From Ignavibacteriota bacterium (GTDB lineage Bacteria > Bacteroidota > Ignavibacteria > UBA10030): 64,000 nucleotides of DNA. Location of the stretch: positions 3,168,001-3,232,000 of the forward strand of contig OY969585.1 of the NCBI GenBank assembly GCA_963701295.1. The letters run 5' to 3'. This document shows, piece by piece, positions 1 to 9,536 of the stretch. Within the stretch, counting starts at the first letter, position 1. The number at the start of each line of letters is the position of its first letter. The translations under genes and the position numbers were made by a program. Below the pieces are notes generated by a model. The model searched no databases, had not been told where the DNA came from, and saw only the letters and a list, made by a program, of their open reading frames with translations.

Positions 1-351
1 ATTCGACCATAAGAAAGAATGTGAGGATTGGCCAGTATTCACGACTTTTTGAAGTTCACTCCCAGCTTGCCAAAATGGAGAACCTTTGGATTGTCCGCTC
101 TGCGTGAAGTTAGCATACATATTCATCAATTGTTTTGGAGAATATGATCCATCGGGGAAAAAAGTATCATCCCAACCATAAGTCTGCTGTCCAACTACCA
201 TAACTCGAGTCTTAAGGACGCAGTATTCCGTAGGAACACAGATGAGCTGAGGTTTAGAAAGACCCTTATGTGACGTTCCGATAGATTGAAGACGTGTGAA
301 GACGCTAGAATAAAATTCCAACAGTTCCTCGTTTAACTCGCTCGCTACCAT
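1..351 (-). CDS. Cassette ORF, 3'-truncated by the window edge; possible uracil-DNA-glycosylase-like fold protein
   Basis: Not in the ORF track. Manual translation from ATG at 351 is open to base 1 (MVASELNEELLEF...RVMVVGQQTYGW...SPFW...FLWSN). It begins just after the stop of the 355-642 ORF. The hydrophobic-GQ motif resembles UDG-superfamily proteins. Confidence 0.6.
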   Translation of the reverse strand, partial: MVASELNEELLEFYSSVFTRLQSIGTSHKGLSKPQLICVPTEYCVLKTRVMVVGQQTYGWDDTFFPDGSYSPKQLMNMYANFTQSGQSKGSPFWQAGSELQKVVNTGQSSHSFLWSN

Positions 352-354
352 CAC

Positions 355-642
355 TTACCTGACAAAAAATATCCATATTGCGGCAAGAGTAATCCCACCA
401 AAGCCACCTTCTATTGAGTTACGAGCATTATCTATAGACCCAATTCGGGATCCTCGATCATCACAGATGTCGGATCCTCGTACGAAGGCAATTCTGTTTC
501 CTCGGTCGTCGAGAATAAAATCGCCCTGTACATATCCGAGTCGTCCACCTCGGTCGTCTTTGATATCGTTTCCTTGAATATAACCAACTCGGCGACCGGA
601 GCTATCGTGAATATTATTTCCTTGCATTTTCATGTTAGGCAT
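355..642 (-). CDS. Small beta-repeat (beta-flower-like) cassette protein
   Basis: Four to five ~15-aa repeats (GNxIxDDRGxRxGY[IV]) and a hydrophobic C-terminus; RBS AAAGGA upstream; first ORF of the cassette starting at ~727. Confidence 0.7.
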   Translation of the reverse strand: MPNMKMQGNNIHDSSGRRVGYIQGNDIKDDRGGRLGYVQGDFILDDRGNRIAFVRGSDICDDRGSRIGSIDNARNSIEGGFGGITLAAIWIFFVR

Positions 643-722
643 AATTGGTTCCTTTCGTTAAGGTTTATAAAAAACACGAATGGCAGATAATTATTTTAAC
701 TACACCAAAAGTAATTCGTGCG

Positions 723-917
723 TTCTAACGGACTGGCGCTAAGCTGCGGCGCTGATAATTTTCAAATTGCAATGAACGAAACAAGTTCATGCTGAAACCA
801 AATTAATAAAAACAAAAGTTATAGGTACTAAAAACTGAATAATAAAAACGATAACCCACCACCAGCCATGCTTAACGTAGCCACGCTCATTCCGTCAGCT
901 TGAGCGCCTGGTTAGGC
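723..917 (-). mobile_element. Integron attC site (195 bp)
   Basis: Minus strand: R'' GCCTAAC-CAGGC-L'' GCTCAAGC TGACGG ... CCGCA L' GCTTAGC-GCCAGTCC-R' GTTAGAA, with two extrahelical bases. The stop codon of the upstream ORF lies in R''. Confidence 0.92.
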
Positions 918-1694
918 GCCATTGGTACGTAAATTCCTTGATACCTTACCGATATATAACGCAACTTTAGACTTTAGCAACGGTTCACCATGTACAAAAA
1001 ATGGACCGTAAAGTTGACCACGTGACACTTTATTGACTGTACCGTTTGAAAGTTGTTCCATAAAGTTTTCTAAATCGGTTTCATTTTTAGCATGCTTTTT
1101 ATCAGTAGTTGCATTTGTAATAAACTCATGAACAAGCATAATTGATCTCGAACATCCCTTGCGCTCCGCTTCACAAAGCGCGCCAGCGCAAGCGGTGAGA
1201 AGCTGATAACGTAGATTACCGAAACGTGCACTGTCTTTCATTTGCAATCCTAATAAAGCCAAAACCAATTGCTCAGCACGGATTGCTCCATTAGAGTTTG
1301 GATCTTTCTTGCGTCGTTCAAATGCTTTCGAAAACGTTTGTGCAACCGATTCACCAAATGGCTCATCTGCTTTTGCCTCTACAGCTAAAAGATATAAACC
1401 GAATGTATCCCGCACATAAACAGCTATATCGCTATTTCGGGTTTCGCCAGAAAAGTCGTCGAACTTGAGTTTTGCTTCTGGCTCTGCAACCCATGTCAGC
1501 ACAGGGCCGAAATTTGGATGACCCGAAAGGATGGAAACAACTTCTTCCGGCATTTTATTTCCAGCTCCCAGCCAAGCGCGCGCAACTTCCTTCGCACTTC
1601 GTTCATCTTTCCATTGGTTCGGTCTTTTGGGGCCCGCATATCTACGCCACTTCTCAAGTGAATCAATTACACGGTCATTTTTATTGATTGACAT
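912..1694 (-). CDS. DUF6946-like protein, probable PD-(D/E)XK nuclease fold (gene cassette)
   Basis: Motifs SAKEVARAW, E..RNSD...VEAKADEPFG, YQLLTACAG, VHEF; flanked by attC sites; TAA stop inside the attC R'' box. Confidence 0.65.
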   Translation of the reverse strand: MSINKNDRVIDSLEKWRRYAGPKRPNQWKDERSAKEVARAWLGAGNKMPEEVVSILSGHPNFGPVLTWVAEPEAKLKFDDFSGETRNSDIAVYVRDTFGLYLLAVEAKADEPFGESVAQTFSKAFERRKKDPNSNGAIRAEQLVLALLGLQMKDSARFGNLRYQLLTACAGALCEAERKGCSRSIMLVHEFITNATTDKKHAKNETDLENFMEQLSNGTVNKVSRGQLYGPFFVHGEPLLKSKVALYIGKVSRNLRTNGA

Positions 1695-1711
1695 GTATTT
1701 TCTCCAATGGC

Positions 1712-1906
1712 GCCTAACGGACTGGCGCTAAGCTGCGGCGCTGATAATTTTCAAGTTGCTGATAACGAAACAGGTTCATGCTAATAACCAAATTGATAAG
1801 TATCAATGTTATAGATACTAAAAACTGAATAGTAAAAACGAAAAACCACCATTAGCCATGAATTTTGCAGTTGGCTCATTCCGTCAGCTTGAGCGCCTGG
1901 TTAGGC
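1712..1906 (-). mobile_element. Integron attC site (195 bp)
   Basis: Arms nearly identical to 723-917 (ctaacggactggcgctaagctgcggcgctgataattttcaa ... gctcattccgtcagcttgagcgcctggttaggc) and a similar AT-rich interior. Confidence 0.92.
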
Positions 1907-2713
1907 GCCAACGTCTTTGATACTTTCATTAAGTTCGTCGCCAGACTTGAGCAACTCAGAAAATCTCTTGATGAAACGAGCGGCCGGTGCACCATCAACA
2001 ATCTCATGATTGAATGAAACCGTGAGGCAAAGATGCTCTCTTGATTCAAGCTTGTTCTCGATAATCTTTGGTCGGTCAACAATAGTTCCTACCGTCACAA
2101 CAACAGTACCTCCACCAACAGGAATAAACCAGAGAGCCTCGTTCCCGAACATTCCAACCGCTGTAACAGCAACCTTGCCGTAACGTTTACTCATGGAAAT
2201 GCTATGAGATGCAGCGCGAATAAAGGTGCGAAGAAGAAATCTTGGGATCAAGCGAAACCAAAATATCCCAGAGAGTGCGCCTAACTCCCCTTGATTAGTA
2301 TGTTGAGCCGATCTAATCTCATCGTGAATTTGGCGATATGTCTTCATTTGTGCTGCTCGAATACCCAAAGGTTCGGGGACTTTTTCACTGTTGATATCAC
2401 GCTCAATGAGGACAGAAATTGCGATGTCATTGAGGAGAATGAGCTTTCGGCCCTTACGAAATGAATTCAGATGTGGATGTTCGGCAATTGCACGCGCCAA
2501 GCAAGTAACAATGAACGCTGTAAAGGAAAGACGTTCTCCAGTTCGCTGCAGATGTTCCCGAATGATACGCCTAGGCTCGGAAACGTCAACCTCAAGAATG
2601 CCATGGATAGTATCTTGCTCGTTGCCAATTGCAGCGGCAGCTGCCACCATTTGCCTATTGTGCGTGAATGGAATAGAACGATAGCCTGAAGATTTGATTG
2701 AATCTGACTGCAT
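1901..2713 (-). CDS. Stand-alone 2-oxoacid dehydrogenase E2-like acyltransferase catalytic domain (CAT fold), gene cassette
   Basis: C-terminal LTVSFNHEIVDGAPAARF (HxxxDG) and SFTAFIVTCLARA motifs; no lipoyl domain; stop in attC R''. Confidence 0.8.
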   Translation of the reverse strand: MQSDSIKSSGYRSIPFTHNRQMVAAAAAIGNEQDTIHGILEVDVSEPRRIIREHLQRTGERLSFTAFIVTCLARAIAEHPHLNSFRKGRKLILLNDIAISVLIERDINSEKVPEPLGIRAAQMKTYRQIHDEIRSAQHTNQGELGALSGIFWFRLIPRFLLRTFIRAASHSISMSKRYGKVAVTAVGMFGNEALWFIPVGGGTVVVTVGTIVDRPKIIENKLESREHLCLTVSFNHEIVDGAPAARFIKRFSELLKSGDELNESIKDVGA

Positions 2714-2736
2714 CCAAAACCTTTCTTTGCGTTGGC

Positions 2737-2892
2737 GCCTAACGGTTGGCGGCTAAGCTGCCGCATTGATAATTTTCAAAATATACAAAACGAAACACGT
2801 TCATAGTACATACTTTCAAGTTAAAATAAAACCTATGTGCGCCATGAATTTAGTAGTGAGCTCATCCGGTCAGCTTGAGCCGCTGGTTAGAA
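2737..2892 (-). mobile_element. Integron attC site (156 bp)
   Basis: Plus strand gcctaac-ggttggcg-gctaagctgccg ... ccggtcagcttgagccgctg-gttagaa; same arm family as the other three sites. Confidence 0.9.
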
Positions 2893-3015
2893 CACACATG
2901 GCTGATTATTCAATTATTAAAATCATTGTCACGTTTGCTTTTTACGCAAAAGTAAATGTTATGGCTAAACATCTTTTGGAATTGCTCACTAAAATGTAAC
3001 CGAAACATCCTGCAG

Positions 3016-3546
3016 TTAAGTGAGTGAAATATTCCGTGGGTGTAATGGCCAATCTGGTCGTCCAGTGATGCCAGGATGCTTTGGAGGCACATTCTGTACA
3101 CGCCGGTAAAATGAATCTAGCTCCCAGAAATGAATTTTACCCCGATTTTCAGGTTTCCTGAGTTCATCAACATAATTGCCCATGATTCCATCCCATAACT
3201 GAACTAAAGGGGGCGCGTAAAACCGATCGATGAGATCCGGATCAACTAGTTTGTGCCGATCCAAAAGACCAAGGACATCAAATGCTCGGCACACCTTGTC
3301 GAGGTTTTCTAACTTTCCATCTTTTTTCATATCTGACCAAGTTTTATTCCTCTGGATGTATGTACGGATGATAGCACGATCCGGCCTTACCTCTTCCATA
3401 AATTTTACTGCATGCATGAAGGATTCTAATTCAAAAGCCTCATGTTGTAGTTTGACTTGATACTTGCTATTCCGGATAATAAGTCCTGTCATAATTGCAT
3501 ATGCAAGTAATGATCCGAACTCTAACACATTTTGAATAGTAAACAT
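3016..3546 (-). CDS. Cassette protein with N-terminal TM helix (DUF4760-like)
   Basis: 176 aa, hydrophobic N-terminus, strong RBS AAGGAGGA; bounded by attC sites. Confidence 0.6.
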   Translation of the reverse strand: MFTIQNVLEFGSLLAYAIMTGLIIRNSKYQVKLQHEAFELESFMHAVKFMEEVRPDRAIIRTYIQRNKTWSDMKKDGKLENLDKVCRAFDVLGLLDRHKLVDPDLIDRFYAPPLVQLWDGIMGNYVDELRKPENRGKIHFWELDSFYRRVQNVPPKHPGITGRPDWPLHPRNISLT

Positions 3547-3659
3547 TTTTATATATCCTCCTTAATTTTTTGATCATTTGGTTTTCTATATTACTATTTT
3601 TTGAATCACTTGTGGATGTTATCATAAGTTTAATAAAAATATTATAGCTGGTTTGTGTG

Positions 3660-3810
3660 TTCTAACGGACGGCACTAAGCTGCGGTGCTAATAACTTTCA
3701 AGTTGTACTATCTTCGCGCGAGCATCATTCTTACAATTTAACATCTACACTTTCGACGCGCGGTGAAATGCACCGTCGCTCATTCCGTCAGCTTGAGTGC
3801 TTGGTTAGGT
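3660..3810 (-). mobile_element. Integron attC site (151 bp)
   Basis: Plus strand ttctaac-ggacg-gcactaagctgcgg ... cattccgtcagcttgagtgcttg-gttaggt; same arm family. Confidence 0.9.
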
Positions 3811-4045
3811 TATAGTTATTTCGTTGTACAGAATTTCTTTTAAGATACACTTTGCTCACACCATCACAACTTTAATTTTTCTGACCACAGGCAGCGCATT
3901 AACGAGATTCTTTTTCTCTCGTACAAAACAATTCTTGTTAACACCACACACTTATTGAAAGCAACCAATTTCTAAATCTGTAGAATCTCTATAAAAACCA
4001 AAGCCATTTGACAACGACACAGAGCGCGCTGCCTGTGGAACCTAA
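3665..4045 (-). mobile_element. First gene cassette, with no ORF of 60 aa or more (~235 bp body plus attC)
   Basis: Starts at GTTAGGTT (4046-4039, minus), complementary to its own attC R'' (AACCTAAC). Contains a 13-bp inverted repeat at 3885-3897 and 4026-4038. Confidence 0.7.
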
Positions 4046-4115
4046 CTATGATTAGACTGCATATCGCAGCCTAATACGCTTTTTTGAGTGTTAGACTGCA
4101 TATTGCAGCCTAACA
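4040..4115 (-). mobile_element. attI-like site with two tandem palindromic direct repeats
   Basis: Minus strand GTCTAAT-CATA-GTTAGGT simple site with no attC arm upstream. Direct repeats ttagactgcatat(c/t)gcagcctaa at 4052-4074 and 4091-4113. Confidence 0.65.
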
Positions 4116-4196
4116 TGATGAACTTGGTAACTATGAAACGGATTTTGGCAGCTCCCAACAATTCCCCACTTTCTTTAGATACTTATCCGCGCTGGT

Positions 4197-4225
4197 AATC
4201 TATCAATTGCGTCACTGAAATGCAA
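4197..4225 (-). promoter_or_regulatory. Putative Pc-like sigma70 promoter facing the cassette array
   Basis: Minus strand TTGCAT-17 bp-TAGATT with a TGn extended -10, ~150 bp upstream of the attI crossover. Confidence 0.5.
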
Positions 4226-4334
4226 GGGAATAAATTTCTATCCCCAAAGAAGCCCTAAGAGATAGCATTTAAAATAAGTGCTTACGAAAGAAGAAAACGC
4301 AGAAATGAGAATATATCGATATGCGACCAACAAC

Positions 4335-4373
4335 TCCGAAGTCTGATGCTCTATCCAGTTGAGCTACGGGTAC
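4335..4373 (-). pseudogene. 5' half of tRNA-Arg (anticodon TCG), truncated after the anticodon loop
   Basis: Minus strand GTACCCG TA GCTC AACTGGATA GAGC A TCAGA CTTCGGA, then GTTGTTGG instead of TCTGA; no T-arm or 3' acceptor strand follows. Confidence 0.85.
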
Positions 4374-4494
4374 GTCTTATTTTTGAGTCCCGCCAAACAA
4401 CAGCGGGATTCTGAGAATTACATCTACTCGCACAAAACACTCGTAGGCATTTTTCGAACTACAGGGACGTTTTAATGCTCTCTGATTCGTTAAT

Positions 4495-4523
4495 AATTTA
4501 CAAAACAAACTCCCCTCTTGCAA
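4495..4523 (-). promoter_or_regulatory. Putative sigma70 promoter upstream of the tRNA half
   Basis: Minus strand TTGCAA-17 bp-TAAATT. Confidence 0.45.
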
Positions 4524-4752
4524 CATTACAATTCCAAGTGGTGTCCGGAGTTCTTCATCTGCTGTGCTTTTGCGTTTTGTACATCCACCGTGTTTTAACG
4601 GAATCTTTGGGCAGACATCCTGACACTATATATATGGATATATTAAAAAAAGAGAGATTCATCCTGCGCCAAATTGCAATCTTCAAATATTCATCCTCAA
4701 GATTTTACCTGTTATATTTCAGAGCTTATCGAATCGTTCATTTTTTCTTAAC

Positions 4753-4781
4753 TTGCATTTGAAGATGTACGAATGTACATT
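4753..4781 (+). promoter_or_regulatory. Putative sigma70 promoter of the 784-aa lipoprotein gene
   Basis: TTGCAT-17 bp-TACATT, overlapped by repeated GTAC palindromes. Confidence 0.35.
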
Positions 4782-4859
4782 TAGTACGTACGATGTTGTA
4801 TGATACAACCAATCTAAAAAAAATTACGATATTTCAGTTTCAACCTCAAATTAACAACT

Positions 4860-7214
4860 GTGGAGTGCGGGATGCGGAATAACCAAAATGAATCTCAGAT
4901 AATCGTTGTGAAACGATCATTGTGTGTTCGTAGCTTTGAAAAAGCAAACCGATTGATTGCTCGTTTCCGCCGCTCTCGGATTGCTTTGCTCTTTAGTGCT
5001 CTTGTGCTCATGGTACTCTGCTGTTTCCTGCTGATCGACGGATGCAGCAAAGACAGCGGTCCGACCGCTCCATCTACTACAGTAACGTTGCAGGGAAACC
5101 AGGCTTTTCATGCCGGAGCTGTCGCCGGGTATCAAGCAGTCGGTGCAGGCATATCATATCCTTTTACGGCGCTACAGCTTGCTAGTCCCACCGGCAGCAC
5201 GATTCGCAGTCTATCCGTTACGAATCTGTTCTCGAGTTCTAATGGCTTTAAAGCGCTCATGCGCACATCGAAGATTACAGACACACTCGCGTTTTTACCG
5301 CTTCTGAATCTTTATGGTGGTCATAGATTTAATGGGAATGTATTGACTTTATTTTTTTATAGCGATGCGGCAGGTACGCAGTCTGCGGGAAATGTTGCGG
5401 TAACGTTGCCTGCGAATACCACTAATCCACTGGATCCAACCAGCTATGCCTCCTACCCAGCTAACATCACAATCGCTATGAATATTACTGGGGGCAATCT
5501 GCCATGTACAGGAAACCTCGTGGTTAGTTTCACGGGTGGAACAGGTGCAAATACGATGACAGGAACAAATACACTGACCAAGGACAATGTTGTATTCGAT
5601 CTGAACCTTGCTCTTGATAACCAGATGAATGCAACTGGGTCGATTACTATTACAGAGAGCGGCGCTACAATAGAAGCAACAAATGTGAAAGGCGCAGTGT
5701 ACGCTTACCTCACCTGCGATGTGAAGATTAATCCTTATGGCTGGATTGGAACCGGCACACTCAACCTAATACAGGGTTCGATGACAGCAAATGTGTATAC
5801 AGGCACTGGAACATCCACTGCCACATCAGATAGTCTCGGCAGTCTGAACATTAACTATGCAGATGGCACTCATGAGATTGTGGTTAACGCGCTCTCAGGA
5901 GGCTTGACAAGTTCAATTACCTCGCCGGTCAGCATCACGGCAACTAGCGGTTCGTCGCAGAGTGCCACGATTAACACAGCTTTTTCCTCGCCTTTAGTTG
6001 CAACAGTTAAAGACCAGAGCAGCATTCCGGTAAGCGGAGCGACGGTTACTTTTACAGCACCGTCATCCGGACAGAGTTGTACTTTTACAGGTGGAGCCAC
6101 TGCGATTACCGCAACCACCAATGCACAGGGACAGGCACAAGTCACCGTTACCGCGAATGCCATAGCCGGGAACTACAATGTGACGGCATCAGTGGCTGGT
6201 GTTACAACGACAGCAACTTTCTCGTTGACGAACAACAGTCTAAATACTGGATATAATGCGCCACTTTTCTATAACAGCAGCCAGGGAACAATCGTAACTA
6301 TCAACAATAATGGTCAGTCCATCGGCTATCTATCATCAACTATGGGTTCTAGTTATACGGTACCGGTTTACTGGTCCACACCCACTTCTCAGCCGCAGAC
6401 CCTTCAAATCGCTACAGGTGACAGCTCAGCTGTTGCGAAGGGGCTTAACGACAACGGCCAGCTTGTTGGCTACTCTGCTGGTGGTACATATATCGTTAAT
6501 CCCGATTATTATACTGATACGAAACCTATTTATTGGTCAAGCCCAACGGCGAAGCCAGAATACCTGGCGGTGCCTAGTAAGTGGTATAATGCGTATGCAA
6601 TGAGCATCAACAATAGCGGGCAGATTGTTGGTTATGCATTGAACGGAACTGTCGTTATTCCCCTTTACTGGTCTAGCCCAACTGACACGCCTCAGGTGCT
6701 TGCGGGTACCTCAGTTAATGGACCGAGCTTCATCACTTCCAATGGTCAGATCTTAGGTGATTTTACTCCATATTACGTAAAGAGCGAAGTGGTCTGGACT
6801 AGCCCGACGGCTCAACCTATTGTGCTGAAAAGTCTTGCTGCAAGCGCTACTATATATCCCTACTCTATTAATACATCAGGCGTAATTGTGGGAGAAAACT
6901 TAGATACGAGCGGTCAAACTGCCGTGACCTGGGCAAATGCCAACGCATCCCCTCAGGCGCTGCCTCTACCACATGTGCCATCTATATTGGGTATCACCAA
7001 CGCTGCCAGCATCAATACCGCAGGTGTTATCGTTGGCTCATTCAGCAACGGCCAAGGCGGTGGAGATTGCATGATCTGGAAGAATGGGCAGGTACAGGAC
7101 CTTGCCGTCTTGATTAGCTATTCCCTTGGTCCAGCTACGTTAATCACAGATAAGGGTTGGATACTTGGTACAGCGTATTATGGATACAATCAATACATCC
7201 TTATTCCCAAGTGA
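4860..7214 (+). CDS. Large surface lipoprotein with Ig-like (Big_1) domain and C-terminal HAF-like extracellular repeats
   Basis: Lipobox LIDGC; SITATSGSSQSATINTAFSSPLVATVKD...VSGATVTF...TNAQGQA (Big_1); repeated INNxGQxVG and YWSSPT units. Start codon uncertain. Confidence 0.75.
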   Translation: MECGMRNNQNESQIIVVKRSLCVRSFEKANRLIARFRRSRIALLFSALVLMVLCCFLLIDGCSKDSGPTAPSTTVTLQGNQAFHAGAVAGYQAVGAGISYPFTALQLASPTGSTIRSLSVTNLFSSSNGFKALMRTSKITDTLAFLPLLNLYGGHRFNGNVLTLFFYSDAAGTQSAGNVAVTLPANTTNPLDPTSYASYPANITIAMNITGGNLPCTGNLVVSFTGGTGANTMTGTNTLTKDNVVFDLNLALDNQMNATGSITITESGATIEATNVKGAVYAYLTCDVKINPYGWIGTGTLNLIQGSMTANVYTGTGTSTATSDSLGSLNINYADGTHEIVVNALSGGLTSSITSPVSITATSGSSQSATINTAFSSPLVATVKDQSSIPVSGATVTFTAPSSGQSCTFTGGATAITATTNAQGQAQVTVTANAIAGNYNVTASVAGVTTTATFSLTNNSLNTGYNAPLFYNSSQGTIVTINNNGQSIGYLSSTMGSSYTVPVYWSTPTSQPQTLQIATGDSSAVAKGLNDNGQLVGYSAGGTYIVNPDYYTDTKPIYWSSPTAKPEYLAVPSKWYNAYAMSINNSGQIVGYALNGTVVIPLYWSSPTDTPQVLAGTSVNGPSFITSNGQILGDFTPYYVKSEVVWTSPTAQPIVLKSLAASATIYPYSINTSGVIVGENLDTSGQTAVTWANANASPQALPLPHVPSILGITNAASINTAGVIVGSFSNGQGGGDCMIWKNGQVQDLAVLISYSLGPATLITDKGWILGTAYYGYNQYILIPK

Positions 7215-7703: not shown

Positions 7704-9536
7704 CTACAATTCAAGAAGTTGGATGATATCAAATCGCTTCATTTTAGAAAGTTCAACTTTGAGTTCCTTTCGTTTCTCTTTGTCATAGAGGAAGAAAAAG
7801 AGCTGCTGCATTTTCTTTTCCTTTATCGAACGAGGTATATCCATTTTTTCCAATGTGTAAGGATCAAATCCGGTATAAAACATTACTGAGGCGAGAGTCA
7901 TGGGTGTTGGAGTAAAATCCTGAACCTGTTCCAACTTCATATTCAGTTTTTGCATGTGAATAGCAATATCCGCCATATCCTCAAGCCCGCTCGCTGGTAG
8001 GCTTGAAATAAAATACGGGATCAGTTGCTGATTTAATCCATATTCCTGACAAATATCCGTGAACCGGTTATATACATGGATGAACAGATCGAAGGAAGGT
8101 TTGCGCAGGAGTTTTAAAACTTTTTCTGAAGTATGTTCCGGAGCAACTTTTAACCTGCCCGAAACATGATGAACAACAAGTTCCTTAAAATATTCAAGCG
8201 CCGAAGGATCGACAGGCTTATTCTTTTTATCGAGGATAAGATCGTACCTGATTCCGCTTCCAACGGTAATTTTTTTGATGCCCTTCACCTTTCTCGCTTC
8301 ATTGTAAAGTTCAATGAGCGGTGTGTAATTGGTATCTAAGTTTTTACAAAGAACAGGATACAAACACGATGGCCGTTTGCATATGGCACATTGTTTTAGA
8401 TTAATGCCTTTCATCTCATACATGTTTGCCGAAGGACCGCCCAGATCGGTAATGTGTCCCTTAAAAGATGGAGCATGAACAATTGCCTTCAGTTCTTTCA
8501 GTATAGAACTTTTGGAACGGCTTGAAATAAATTTTCCCTGATGAGCGGAAATAGTACAAAATGAACACCCTCCAAAGCATCCCCTGTGAATTGTCACAGA
8601 ATCTTTGATCATTTCATACGCCGGAATCGGCTCTTTGCCATTGTATCTTGGATGCGGCAGGCGCGTATAAGGCAGATCATAGACGTTGTCAATTTCTTTC
8701 TGCGAAAGCGGCGGATATGCCGGATTCACTATTACCCATTCCTTCCCTGTTTTCTCAGCAAGAGATCGTTGTTCAAGTTTATTTGATTCCTCTTCGGTGA
8801 TCACAAAGTTGCGTGCAAACGCTTTCTTGCTCTTCACGCAATCCTCATAAGAGGCAAGCAAAATTATTTTATCATTTTGTGCGGAAGGATATTCTTTTGC
8901 ACGAAAAGCCGTTTGAGGAATTTGTGTTATGCTTTCAATGCTCTCGCCTCTTCCTAATTTCTTCGCTACTGCTACGATAGATTTTTCCGCCATTCCATAG
9001 ACAAGGAGATCTGCATTTGAATCAATCAATATGGAAGGTTTTAAAGAGTCACTCCAATAATCGTAATGCGTAAGCCTGCGGAGCGAAGCTTCGATCCCCC
9101 CGATGATTAAGGGAACTTGCGGAAAGAGCGATTTCAGGATTTTTGAATATACCGTTACTGCATAATCTGGCCTCTGTCCCGATTTATTCCCTGGTGTGAA
9201 TGCATCGTTGGAACGGAGACGTTTGTTTGCTGTATAGTGGTTGATCATCGAGTCCATATTACCCGATGTCACTCCAAAGAACAGCCTTGGTATTCCTAAT
9301 TTCTTAAAATCCCTGAGGTCATCGCGCCAGTTAGGCTGCGGAACAATGGCGACTGTATATCCGGTTTTTTCCAGTACCCGTGCAACAACCGCGGCACCAA
9401 ATGCCGGGTGGTCAACAAATGCATCTCCTGTAAAGAGTATGACATCGGCTTGTTGCCAACCAAGCTCCTGCATCCCCTTTATGGATGTAGGAAAGAAATC
9501 GGCATGTCTAGATGTTTGACTAATTGCGCTTTTCAT
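7704..9536 (-). CDS. ygiQ: YgiQ family radical SAM protein
   Basis: TGDAFVDHPAFG, RGCFGGCSFC (CxxxCxxC), APEH and QVQDFTPTP motifs. Confidence 0.92.
   Translation of the reverse strand: MKSAISQTSRHADFFPTSIKGMQELGWQQADVILFTGDAFVDHPAFGAAVVARVLEKTGYTVAIVPQPNWRDDLRDFKKLGIPRLFFGVTSGNMDSMINHYTANKRLRSNDAFTPGNKSGQRPDYAVTVYSKILKSLFPQVPLIIGGIEASLRRLTHYDYWSDSLKPSILIDSNADLLVYGMAEKSIVAVAKKLGRGESIESITQIPQTAFRAKEYPSAQNDKIILLASYEDCVKSKKAFARNFVITEEESNKLEQRSLAEKTGKEWVIVNPAYPPLSQKEIDNVYDLPYTRLPHPRYNGKEPIPAYEMIKDSVTIHRGCFGGCSFCTISAHQGKFISSRSKSSILKELKAIVHAPSFKGHITDLGGPSANMYEMKGINLKQCAICKRPSCLYPVLCKNLDTNYTPLIELYNEARKVKGIKKITVGSGIRYDLILDKKNKPVDPSALEYFKELVVHHVSGRLKVAPEHTSEKVLKLLRKPSFDLFIHVYNRFTDICQEYGLNQQLIPYFISSLPASGLEDMADIAIHMQKLNMKLEQVQDFTPTPMTLASVMFYTGFDPYTLEKMDIPRSIKEKKMQQLFFFLYDKEKRKELKVELSKMKRFDIIQLLEL

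Follow-up and report, generated by a model that had tools for sequence, protein, structure and literature searches.

Here we describe an integron platform that retains a predicted attI recombination site and a Pc-like promoter motif with no adjacent integrase gene (intI), in a 64,000-nucleotide stretch of an Ignavibacteriota bacterium genome (hereafter the window; GCA_963701295.1, contig OY969585.1). The window spans C1:3168001-3232000 of the genome designated G000, which is one 3.64-Mb contig and 99% complete; 15 congeneric genomes served as the platform comparison set. From sequence comparison it appears probable that this platform, fused to the left end of a decayed and split tRNA-Arg island, is loaded with cassettes in trans by the sole intact IntI of the genome.

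A predicted attI platform without intI

In G000 and in six relatives, the 80-mer that forms the attI-like site of the window recurs immediately before an intact intI, and is thereby identified as attI by position; in the window, the core of the first cassette also matches at the junction, so that position and junction both support its designation as a predicted attI. The platform consists of the following parts:

4040 to 4115, minus strand: attI-like site with crossover at 4046 and two 23-bp near-palindromic repeats (4052-4074 and 4091-4113); its core shares 97% identity with the site next to the intact intI
4116 to 4196, no strand: platform spacer, with three deletions (33, 24 and 18 bp) that recur in the C1:2834100 platform; G009 C7 also has the 18-bp gap and the 24-bp junction
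4197 to 4225, minus strand: Pc-like promoter motif, conserved, under the threshold of a sigma-70 scan
4224 to 4233, plus strand: ribosome-binding site (RBS) of the lost intI, which is deleted from the RBS onwards
4234 to 4274, no strand: platform outer tail, common to G009 C7 and largely to C1:2834100

The platforms of the window and of 2834100 are 91.5% identical, and their three common deletions suggest descent from a copy that was already without intI. Searches of 3801-4900 (best E 0.56) and of C1:3120-3180 kb gave no remnant of intI or of an island integrase. The adjacent intI that defines a complete integron is missing, and the array, with 30 attC sites and no intI, falls under the definition of an attC cluster that has no integron-integrase (CALIN).

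Both hexamers and the 17-bp spacing of the Pc-like motif are preserved in the 14 platforms that carry it, a count that is partly circular as these platforms were chosen by motif search. The initial annotation, made from the sequence alone, had proposed four attC sites, an attI-like site, a Pc-like promoter and no adjacent intI. The attC sites (723-917, 1712-1906, 2737-2892 and 3660-3810), the attI by its position, and the absence of even a degenerate intI in 3801-4900 all bear it out; the promoter motif is present where it was described, and is here called putative since it agrees with the sigma-70 consensus at only 7 of 12 positions and a promoter scan over 3800-4900 returned 0 promoters.

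One intact intI and many orphan platforms

A genome-wide search for intI, as the initial annotation had proposed, recovered a single G000 intI above the TIGR02249 family cut-off, located at C1:3566706, 395 kb from the platform of the window. The encoded IntI aligns end to end with the IntI4 structure 2a3v. G000 contains 8 matches to the 80-bp attI-like sequence, 7 of them without a full intI, and 11 of the 15 congeneric genomes match it as well; in these relatives, 19 testable sites divide into 6 with a full intI, 1 with a stub and 12 with none.

The deletions that removed intI differ among platforms. The gene is truncated at the RBS in the window, 2834100 and G009 C7 platforms; the 224 kb platform is fused to the 3’ flank of intI; intI ends after eight codons at 2464 kb and after 74 codons in a G006 platform; and the platforms at 1796 kb and 3446 kb end at the attI core. 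At least four distinct deletion endpoints leave the attI-like site and the Pc-like motif both intact.

Two further observations concern intI itself. At G000:C1:581744-582118, another intI allele (98% amino acid and 78% nucleotide identity) survives as its C-terminal 45 codons. They sit at one end of a 53-kb island, with a tRNA-Glu 3’ fragment 190 bp away, and the island may once have carried a whole integron. In G010, the position of the G000 224-kb platform is taken by a second complete integron (L184, G010:C11:24564-39319), whose IntI is divergent (62%) and whose attI is not the same. We considered whether the 224-kb platform is this G010 integron minus its intI and rejected the idea, the two having position alone in common.

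Probable loading of orphan platforms in trans

Among 23 platforms found, the first-cassette core matches in 16 of the 18 that are testable (shuffle mean 3.7, maximum 11), including 9 of the 11 testable platforms without intI. The window platform and its sister at 2834100 are correctly joined to different first cassettes, and one orthologous orphan platform carries four different first cassettes in four relatives. The six full attI cores of G000 have in common a variant unseen in the relatives and are 92-100% identical to the intI-linked core, whereas the region flanking the platforms is only 69-71% identical. Differing yet correctly joined first cassettes, together with homogenized attI cores, make it likely that IntI serves the orphan platforms in trans.

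The same data must be set against the view that the orphan platforms are passive fossils that take up no cassettes, and that their contents and attI cores derive from homologous recombination and gene conversion, in which the arrays, the IS110 copies and the attI cores would all take part. Exchange of this kind between attI cores that are nearly identical could yield both varied first cassettes and homogenized cores, just as homologous exchange could account for the correct junctions and for cassettes found in more than one array, and a 499-bp cassette held by the window array and by the 2478 kb array is identical for 10 bp past the crossover, an end that conversion explains as well as IntI does; these two points, and the blank promoter scan, weigh against our interpretation. 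The genome is furthermore much rearranged at its arrays, which contain nine near-identical IS110-family copies, and the first cassette of the window is non-coding. We nonetheless consider a purely passive origin unlikely, given the correct core pairing at most intI-less attI junctions, the repeated intI deletions that spare the attI-like site and Pc-like motif, and the four first cassettes found at one orthologous orphan platform.

The cassette array

Mapping with hidden Markov models (HMMs) iterated from the four window attC sites, which miss divergent sites, gave 122 complete attC sites in G000, and showed the window sites to be the innermost end of a 30-site, 38-kb array that extends to C1:3134273, with both ends detected for 22 of the 30 sites. 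Its cassettes lie on the minus strand:

1 to 729, minus strand: fifth cassette, continuing leftwards beyond the window, with a 95-aa beta-flower protein at 355-642 and a second open reading frame (ORF)
723 to 917, minus strand: attC site, 195 bp
912 to 1694, minus strand: ORF of cassette 4, 260 aa, DUF6946
1712 to 1906, minus strand: attC site, 195 bp
1901 to 2713, minus strand: ORF of cassette 3, 270 aa, 2-oxoacid dehydrogenase acyltransferase domain
2737 to 2892, minus strand: attC site, 156 bp
3016 to 3546, minus strand: ORF of cassette 2, 176 aa, DUF4760-like (under cut-off)
3660 to 3810, minus strand: attC site of the first cassette, 151 bp
3811 to 4045, minus strand: non-coding body of the first cassette, which resembles cassettes at 5 or more other places in G000 (69-76%)

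In all four cassettes wholly within the window, the 7-bp core at the start is complementary to that of the cassette’s own attC, as it is in 13 of the 18 testable cassettes of the whole array. Genome-wide, a crude parser that mis-picked some cores (including the first of the window) found a match for 52 of 73, compared with 19.7 on average and 28 at most after shuffling; the platform and window-array counts come from a redone parse. All four window attC sites fold into long hairpins, as judged by folding without a shuffle control, and cassettes 97-99% identical occur in more than one G000 array. With origin and terminus placed by GC skew, the attC bottom strand is part of the leading-strand template, both in the window array and for 100 of the 122 full sites. 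The sole large array oriented against replication, at G000:C1:225028-261309, coincides with a reversal of local GC skew over 220-260 kb.

The left end of a tRNA-Arg island

Immediately outside the platform tail lies the left attachment site of an island of the 5’-fragment type, in which the displaced fragment keeps the host arm and the restored tRNA carries the element arm:

4270 to 4323, minus strand: island arm (P’) of a tRNA-5’-end integrase family, ending ~25 bp before the usual integrase start
4324 to 4373, minus strand: tRNA-Arg(TCG) 5’ fragment, nt 1 to ~50, left attachment site; its intact partner is at G000:C1:2498254-2498328
4374 to 4564, minus strand: host arm, matching the sequence upstream of intact tRNA-Arg(TCG) in relatives
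4495 to 4523, minus strand: promoter-like motif facing the array, which 3 of 8 relatives retain upstream of their intact tRNA, under the consensus scan threshold

Both arms are as expected for such an island. Upstream of the fragment, the window sequence matches the host arm at 7 of the 9 loci compared, while the intact tRNA at 2498254 is preceded by an element arm, common to a G000 tRNA-Arg(TCT) island and a G012 tRNA-Arg(ACG) island. Inside the fragment, 55 bp align with the integrase-preceding arms of six family members and stop short of the integrase. The motif at 4495-4523 is likely the host tRNA promoter, and may add read-through into the array.

Comparison with relatives having an uninterrupted locus, one of the checks proposed at the outset, supports this assignment. 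A radical-SAM gene (window 7704-9536) is matched in 14 of the 15 congeners; of 12 relative loci around it, seven have an intact adjacent tRNA-Arg(TCG), followed by tadA and prfA, and no attI, while in one the tRNA is 12 kb off, in one a contig end interrupts the locus, and in three this tRNA is absent from the stretch. In G000, the radical-SAM gene still has the 5’ fragment next to it; tadA and prfA accompany the intact tRNA at C1:2498254. This right island end has the intact tRNA behind a 27-hit array and a C-terminal integrase stub of 78 aa (C1:2497718-2497951), the only remnant of an on-board integrase. The nearest named homologues of the island integrase are from Ignavibacteriota. The four closest integrase homologues (78-83%) all have a tRNA 5’ fragment ~90 bp upstream (L103 among them is the G012 locus again). 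G000 contains at least 7 fragment-and-tRNA pairs of the 5’ type.

The fragment agrees with the host tRNA-Arg(TCG) at 30 of 32 bases before the anticodon loop and at 7 of 7 within it; beyond the loop, to ~nt 50, it is nearer tRNA-Arg(TCT) (9/11) than the host gene (7/11). A second tRNA fragment, at 2513386, likewise switches type at the loop, and on these small counts a crossover in the anticodon loop fits both. ARAGORN called zero tRNAs in the window, and an Rfam search of 3600-4900 (E up to 1) gave only a chance microRNA match far under threshold.

The initial annotation had placed the array at the end of a tRNA-targeting tyrosine-integrase island, and the arms and the intact loci of relatives bear this out. 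It had also seen the tRNA as cut at its anticodon loop, which holds for the probable crossover, although the tRNA-like sequence itself continues to ~nt 50. Its expectation of a tRNA 3’ half at the far end fails: no free tRNA-Arg(TCG) 3’ half was found anywhere in G000, and the far end is the intact tRNA-Arg(TCG), since an island of this type restores the 5’ end of the tRNA and leaves a complete gene there. Regarding its proposal of an integrase at the distal end or in trans, IntI could act only in trans, and the far end of the island lies 674 kb off and inverted and is not the distal end of the array.

The distal end of the array is instead marked by a tRNA-Met 3’ fragment in the opposite orientation. 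Such fragments recur at array ends (G000:C1:3133100, 2819459, 2419887, 1811437 and 2464197), the first four pointing into the array. Other features at the tRNA-Arg(TCG) site and its partner include a 784-aa predicted lipoprotein with an Ig-like domain (window 4860-7214), which lies between the radical-SAM gene and the tRNA fragment and is not at this position in the relatives fetched; in relatives, short copies of the first 15-22 bases of tRNA-Arg(TCG), each followed by a small inverted repeat and sited just upstream of the complete gene (L031:16336-16357, L037, L039 and L034), with two such copies in G005; and, at the right island end, the gene of a 638-aa CBM9 protein (G000:C1:2495656-2497572), with a 99% identical duplicate at 2286148-2288162.

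Sister islands and the association of arrays with tRNAs

The pairing of platform and island is not isolated to the window. The sister platform at 2834100 lies behind a tRNA-Arg(CCT) 5’ fragment, in the same orientation as in the window, within an 82-kb tRNA-Arg(CCT) island at C1:2756752-2839323, whose 351-aa integrase keeps its catalytic motifs; the host arm matches relatives at a further fragment (2884881), so that there are two islands in tandem. In G009, the same platform type sits inside a 35-kb tRNA-Phe island with an intact integrase. These sister platforms, unlike the window copy, are flanked by direct tRNA repeats with intact integrases. A 5-kb tRNA-Asp island of G012 also contains attC sites.

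Of the 9 G000 arrays with at least 5 hits, 6 have an end no more than 5 kb from a tRNA or a fragment of one, where 2.0 would be expected (p 0.006). Counted with intact tRNAs only, the association drops to 4 of 9 (p 0.12, not significant); the test ignores joint clustering of arrays and tRNAs in accessory DNA; and three of the nine arrays, including the intI-bearing one, are not near a tRNA, three points that weigh against the favoured reading.

The platform and array could conceivably never have been inside the island, a breakpoint at ~4274 having placed them beside the left attachment site. The platform type and its distal tRNA-Met 3’ fragment do form one module, seen also at C1:2819-2834 kb and in G009 C7, and the rearrangement breakpoints are unpinned. 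Such a chance juxtaposition is nevertheless quite improbable: an array of 27 sites likewise precedes the right island end, the sister platform has its own tRNA-Arg 5’ fragment in front of it in the same orientation, the three genes that flank platforms of this type occur in G008 at the tRNA-Arg(TCG) site as well, adjoining an island arm, and a search at 2464 kb did not recover the sequence that would continue the platform tail.

Several islands hold content of separate interest. A 26-kb tRNA-Ser(TGA) 5’-type island (G000:C1:3436566-3462846) contains ten attC hits and an attI-like site with a single repeat, and its integrase is broken close to the C-terminus. The first cassette of the sister platform (G000:C1:2833064-2834058; L045:3064-4058) consists of two genes with a ThsB-like TIR domain, possibly anti-phage. 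The tRNA-Arg(CCT) island further carries 56 kb of large secreted, apparently sugar-degrading genes (G000:C1:2763000-2819000), of which 19.5 kb tested were unmatched in G010 or G008.

The apparent split of the island

In the assembly, the ends of the tRNA-Arg(TCG) island are 674,119 bp apart and inverted, outside the direct orientation within 200 kb expected of an intact island, and to account for this one must assume one or more rearrangements that broke within the island. Candidate recombination substrates are inverted 1378-bp IS110-family repeats (99.9-100% identity) in both arrays, the 499-bp shared cassette and the near-identical attI cores; insertion sequences of the IS110 type are said to target attC sites. 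The outer flanks of the split adjoin in G001, as a single inversion predicts. A single clean inversion is not upheld, however: the second inversion junction is not clean, as the order in G010 differs, and the rearrangement history was probably multi-step, a point against our reading.

Tyrosine recombinases acting on inverted ends invert rather than excise, so recombination between the island ends as assembled would produce inversion and no excision, and the window copy is immobilized in this assembly. The suggestion that the element is possibly mobile therefore fails for this copy as assembled, which, with split ends and only an integrase stub, is not carried by an intact mobile element.

Alternatively, the island could be contiguous (about 26-31 kb), its apparent split being an assembly swap at identical IS110 copies, which lie at 3163609, 2474327 and 2479699, or at the shared cassette, in which case a helper integrase such as the intact family member at C1:2198183 could still excise it. 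The inverted 1378-bp repeats in both arrays would permit such a swap; four public DNA runs, available as short contigs, contained no piece across the stretch and no informative joint, and GC skew does not help to tell a real split from a swap because the segment spans the terminus. Set against this are the assembly as one 3.64-Mb contig, gene order that is shuffled at arrays in relatives too, a truncated inner arm and a drifted tRNA fragment, and we hold a contiguous island to be very improbable.

Proposed history of the locus

A real split is compatible with the following sequence of events. A tyrosine-integrase element would first have entered tRNA-Arg(TCG), presumably by crossover in the anticodon loop, leaving the host promoter and 5’ half on the left and a restored tRNA on the right, as both ends now stand. 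The island would then have carried or acquired a platform from a line of copies already without intI; the deletion and its sister copies are observed, and the order is the one we consider plausible. Its integrase decayed to the C-terminal stub seen today, and one or more inversions across the terminus, probably between arrays, would have parted and inverted the ends that lie separated in the assembly. IntI from C1:3566706 may still be inserting cassettes at the orphan attI, where Pc, perhaps together with the stranded tRNA promoter 450 bp upstream, could express the first cassettes. More broadly, it is possible, if tentative, that this lineage has a distributed integron in which one IntI serves satellite attI-Pc platforms born by repeated intI deletion and spread by tRNA islands.

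Relation to known systems and significance

The ingredients of this arrangement are already known: CALINs, 5’-fragment islands and trans mobilization. Like a CALIN, the window array is an attC cluster without a nearby intI in a replicon that encodes IntI, and the CALIN survey, in the part drawn on here, lists intI loss and rearrangement as two of four origins and discusses continued functional linkage (Cury et al., 2016; PMC4889954). Unlike most CALINs, of which only 6.6% exceed 10 sites (PMC4889954), it has 30; and it keeps a predicted attI and a Pc-like motif, as one of seven such sites in G000, so that it could receive cassettes and not only donate them. As described there, IntegronFinder sought class 1-3 attI only, by exact match, leaving such platforms invisible to it (PMC4889954). 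The large arrays of similar attC sites, and an orientation as in 25 of 30 sedentary chromosomal integrons, recall those integrons (Loot et al., 2017; PMC5371416), from which G000 differs in spreading its repertoire over nine arrays with their own docking sites rather than one behind intI.

With the 159 of 3919 Islander islands that are of 5’-fragment type (Hudson et al., 2015; PMC4383910), the window island has in common the upstream 5’ fragment, the downstream restored tRNA and a tyrosine integrase; unlike them, it would not pass the Islander filters on integrase, length and orientation, having only a stub and ends that are 674 kb apart and inverted, and it carries an integron platform as cargo. 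The Xanthomonas CALINs similarly combine one intI locus with distant clusters at conserved positions, said to be mobilizable in trans, but the account drawn on here presents those clusters without attI, Pc or tRNA islands (10.1101/2025.06.18.660453). Mobilization of CALIN cassettes in trans is also stated, in the portion consulted, in PMC9668308. Insertion at attG moves attC cassettes, and since recombination of attI into genomes is described as not occurring at a significant rate in the part of that work used here (10.1101/2022.09.11.507474), it cannot explain copied platforms. By title and abstract, with subscription journals mostly outside coverage and supplements excluded, we found no report of many receiver attI-Pc platforms per IntI in tRNA islands.

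Integrase-less cassette clusters are common and are usually read as leftovers or donors, partly because attI is unrecognizable outside a few classes. In this lineage attI is recognizable, and many clusters without intI keep it together with a promoter-like motif. If the orphan platforms still receive cassettes, one genome would have several active capture points per integrase, and tRNA islands would offer a non-transposon route for the spread of chromosomal arrays. Were the system indeed distributed, several cassettes could occupy the first, expressed position at once, whole arrays would be movable between cells in integrase-bearing islands such as the 82-kb tRNA-Arg(CCT) island or the 35-kb tRNA-Phe island of G009, and 5’-type insertion could give an array the promoter of the host tRNA. 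With one IntI, its own attI and six or seven orphan variants, the locus constitutes a natural test set for these possibilities.

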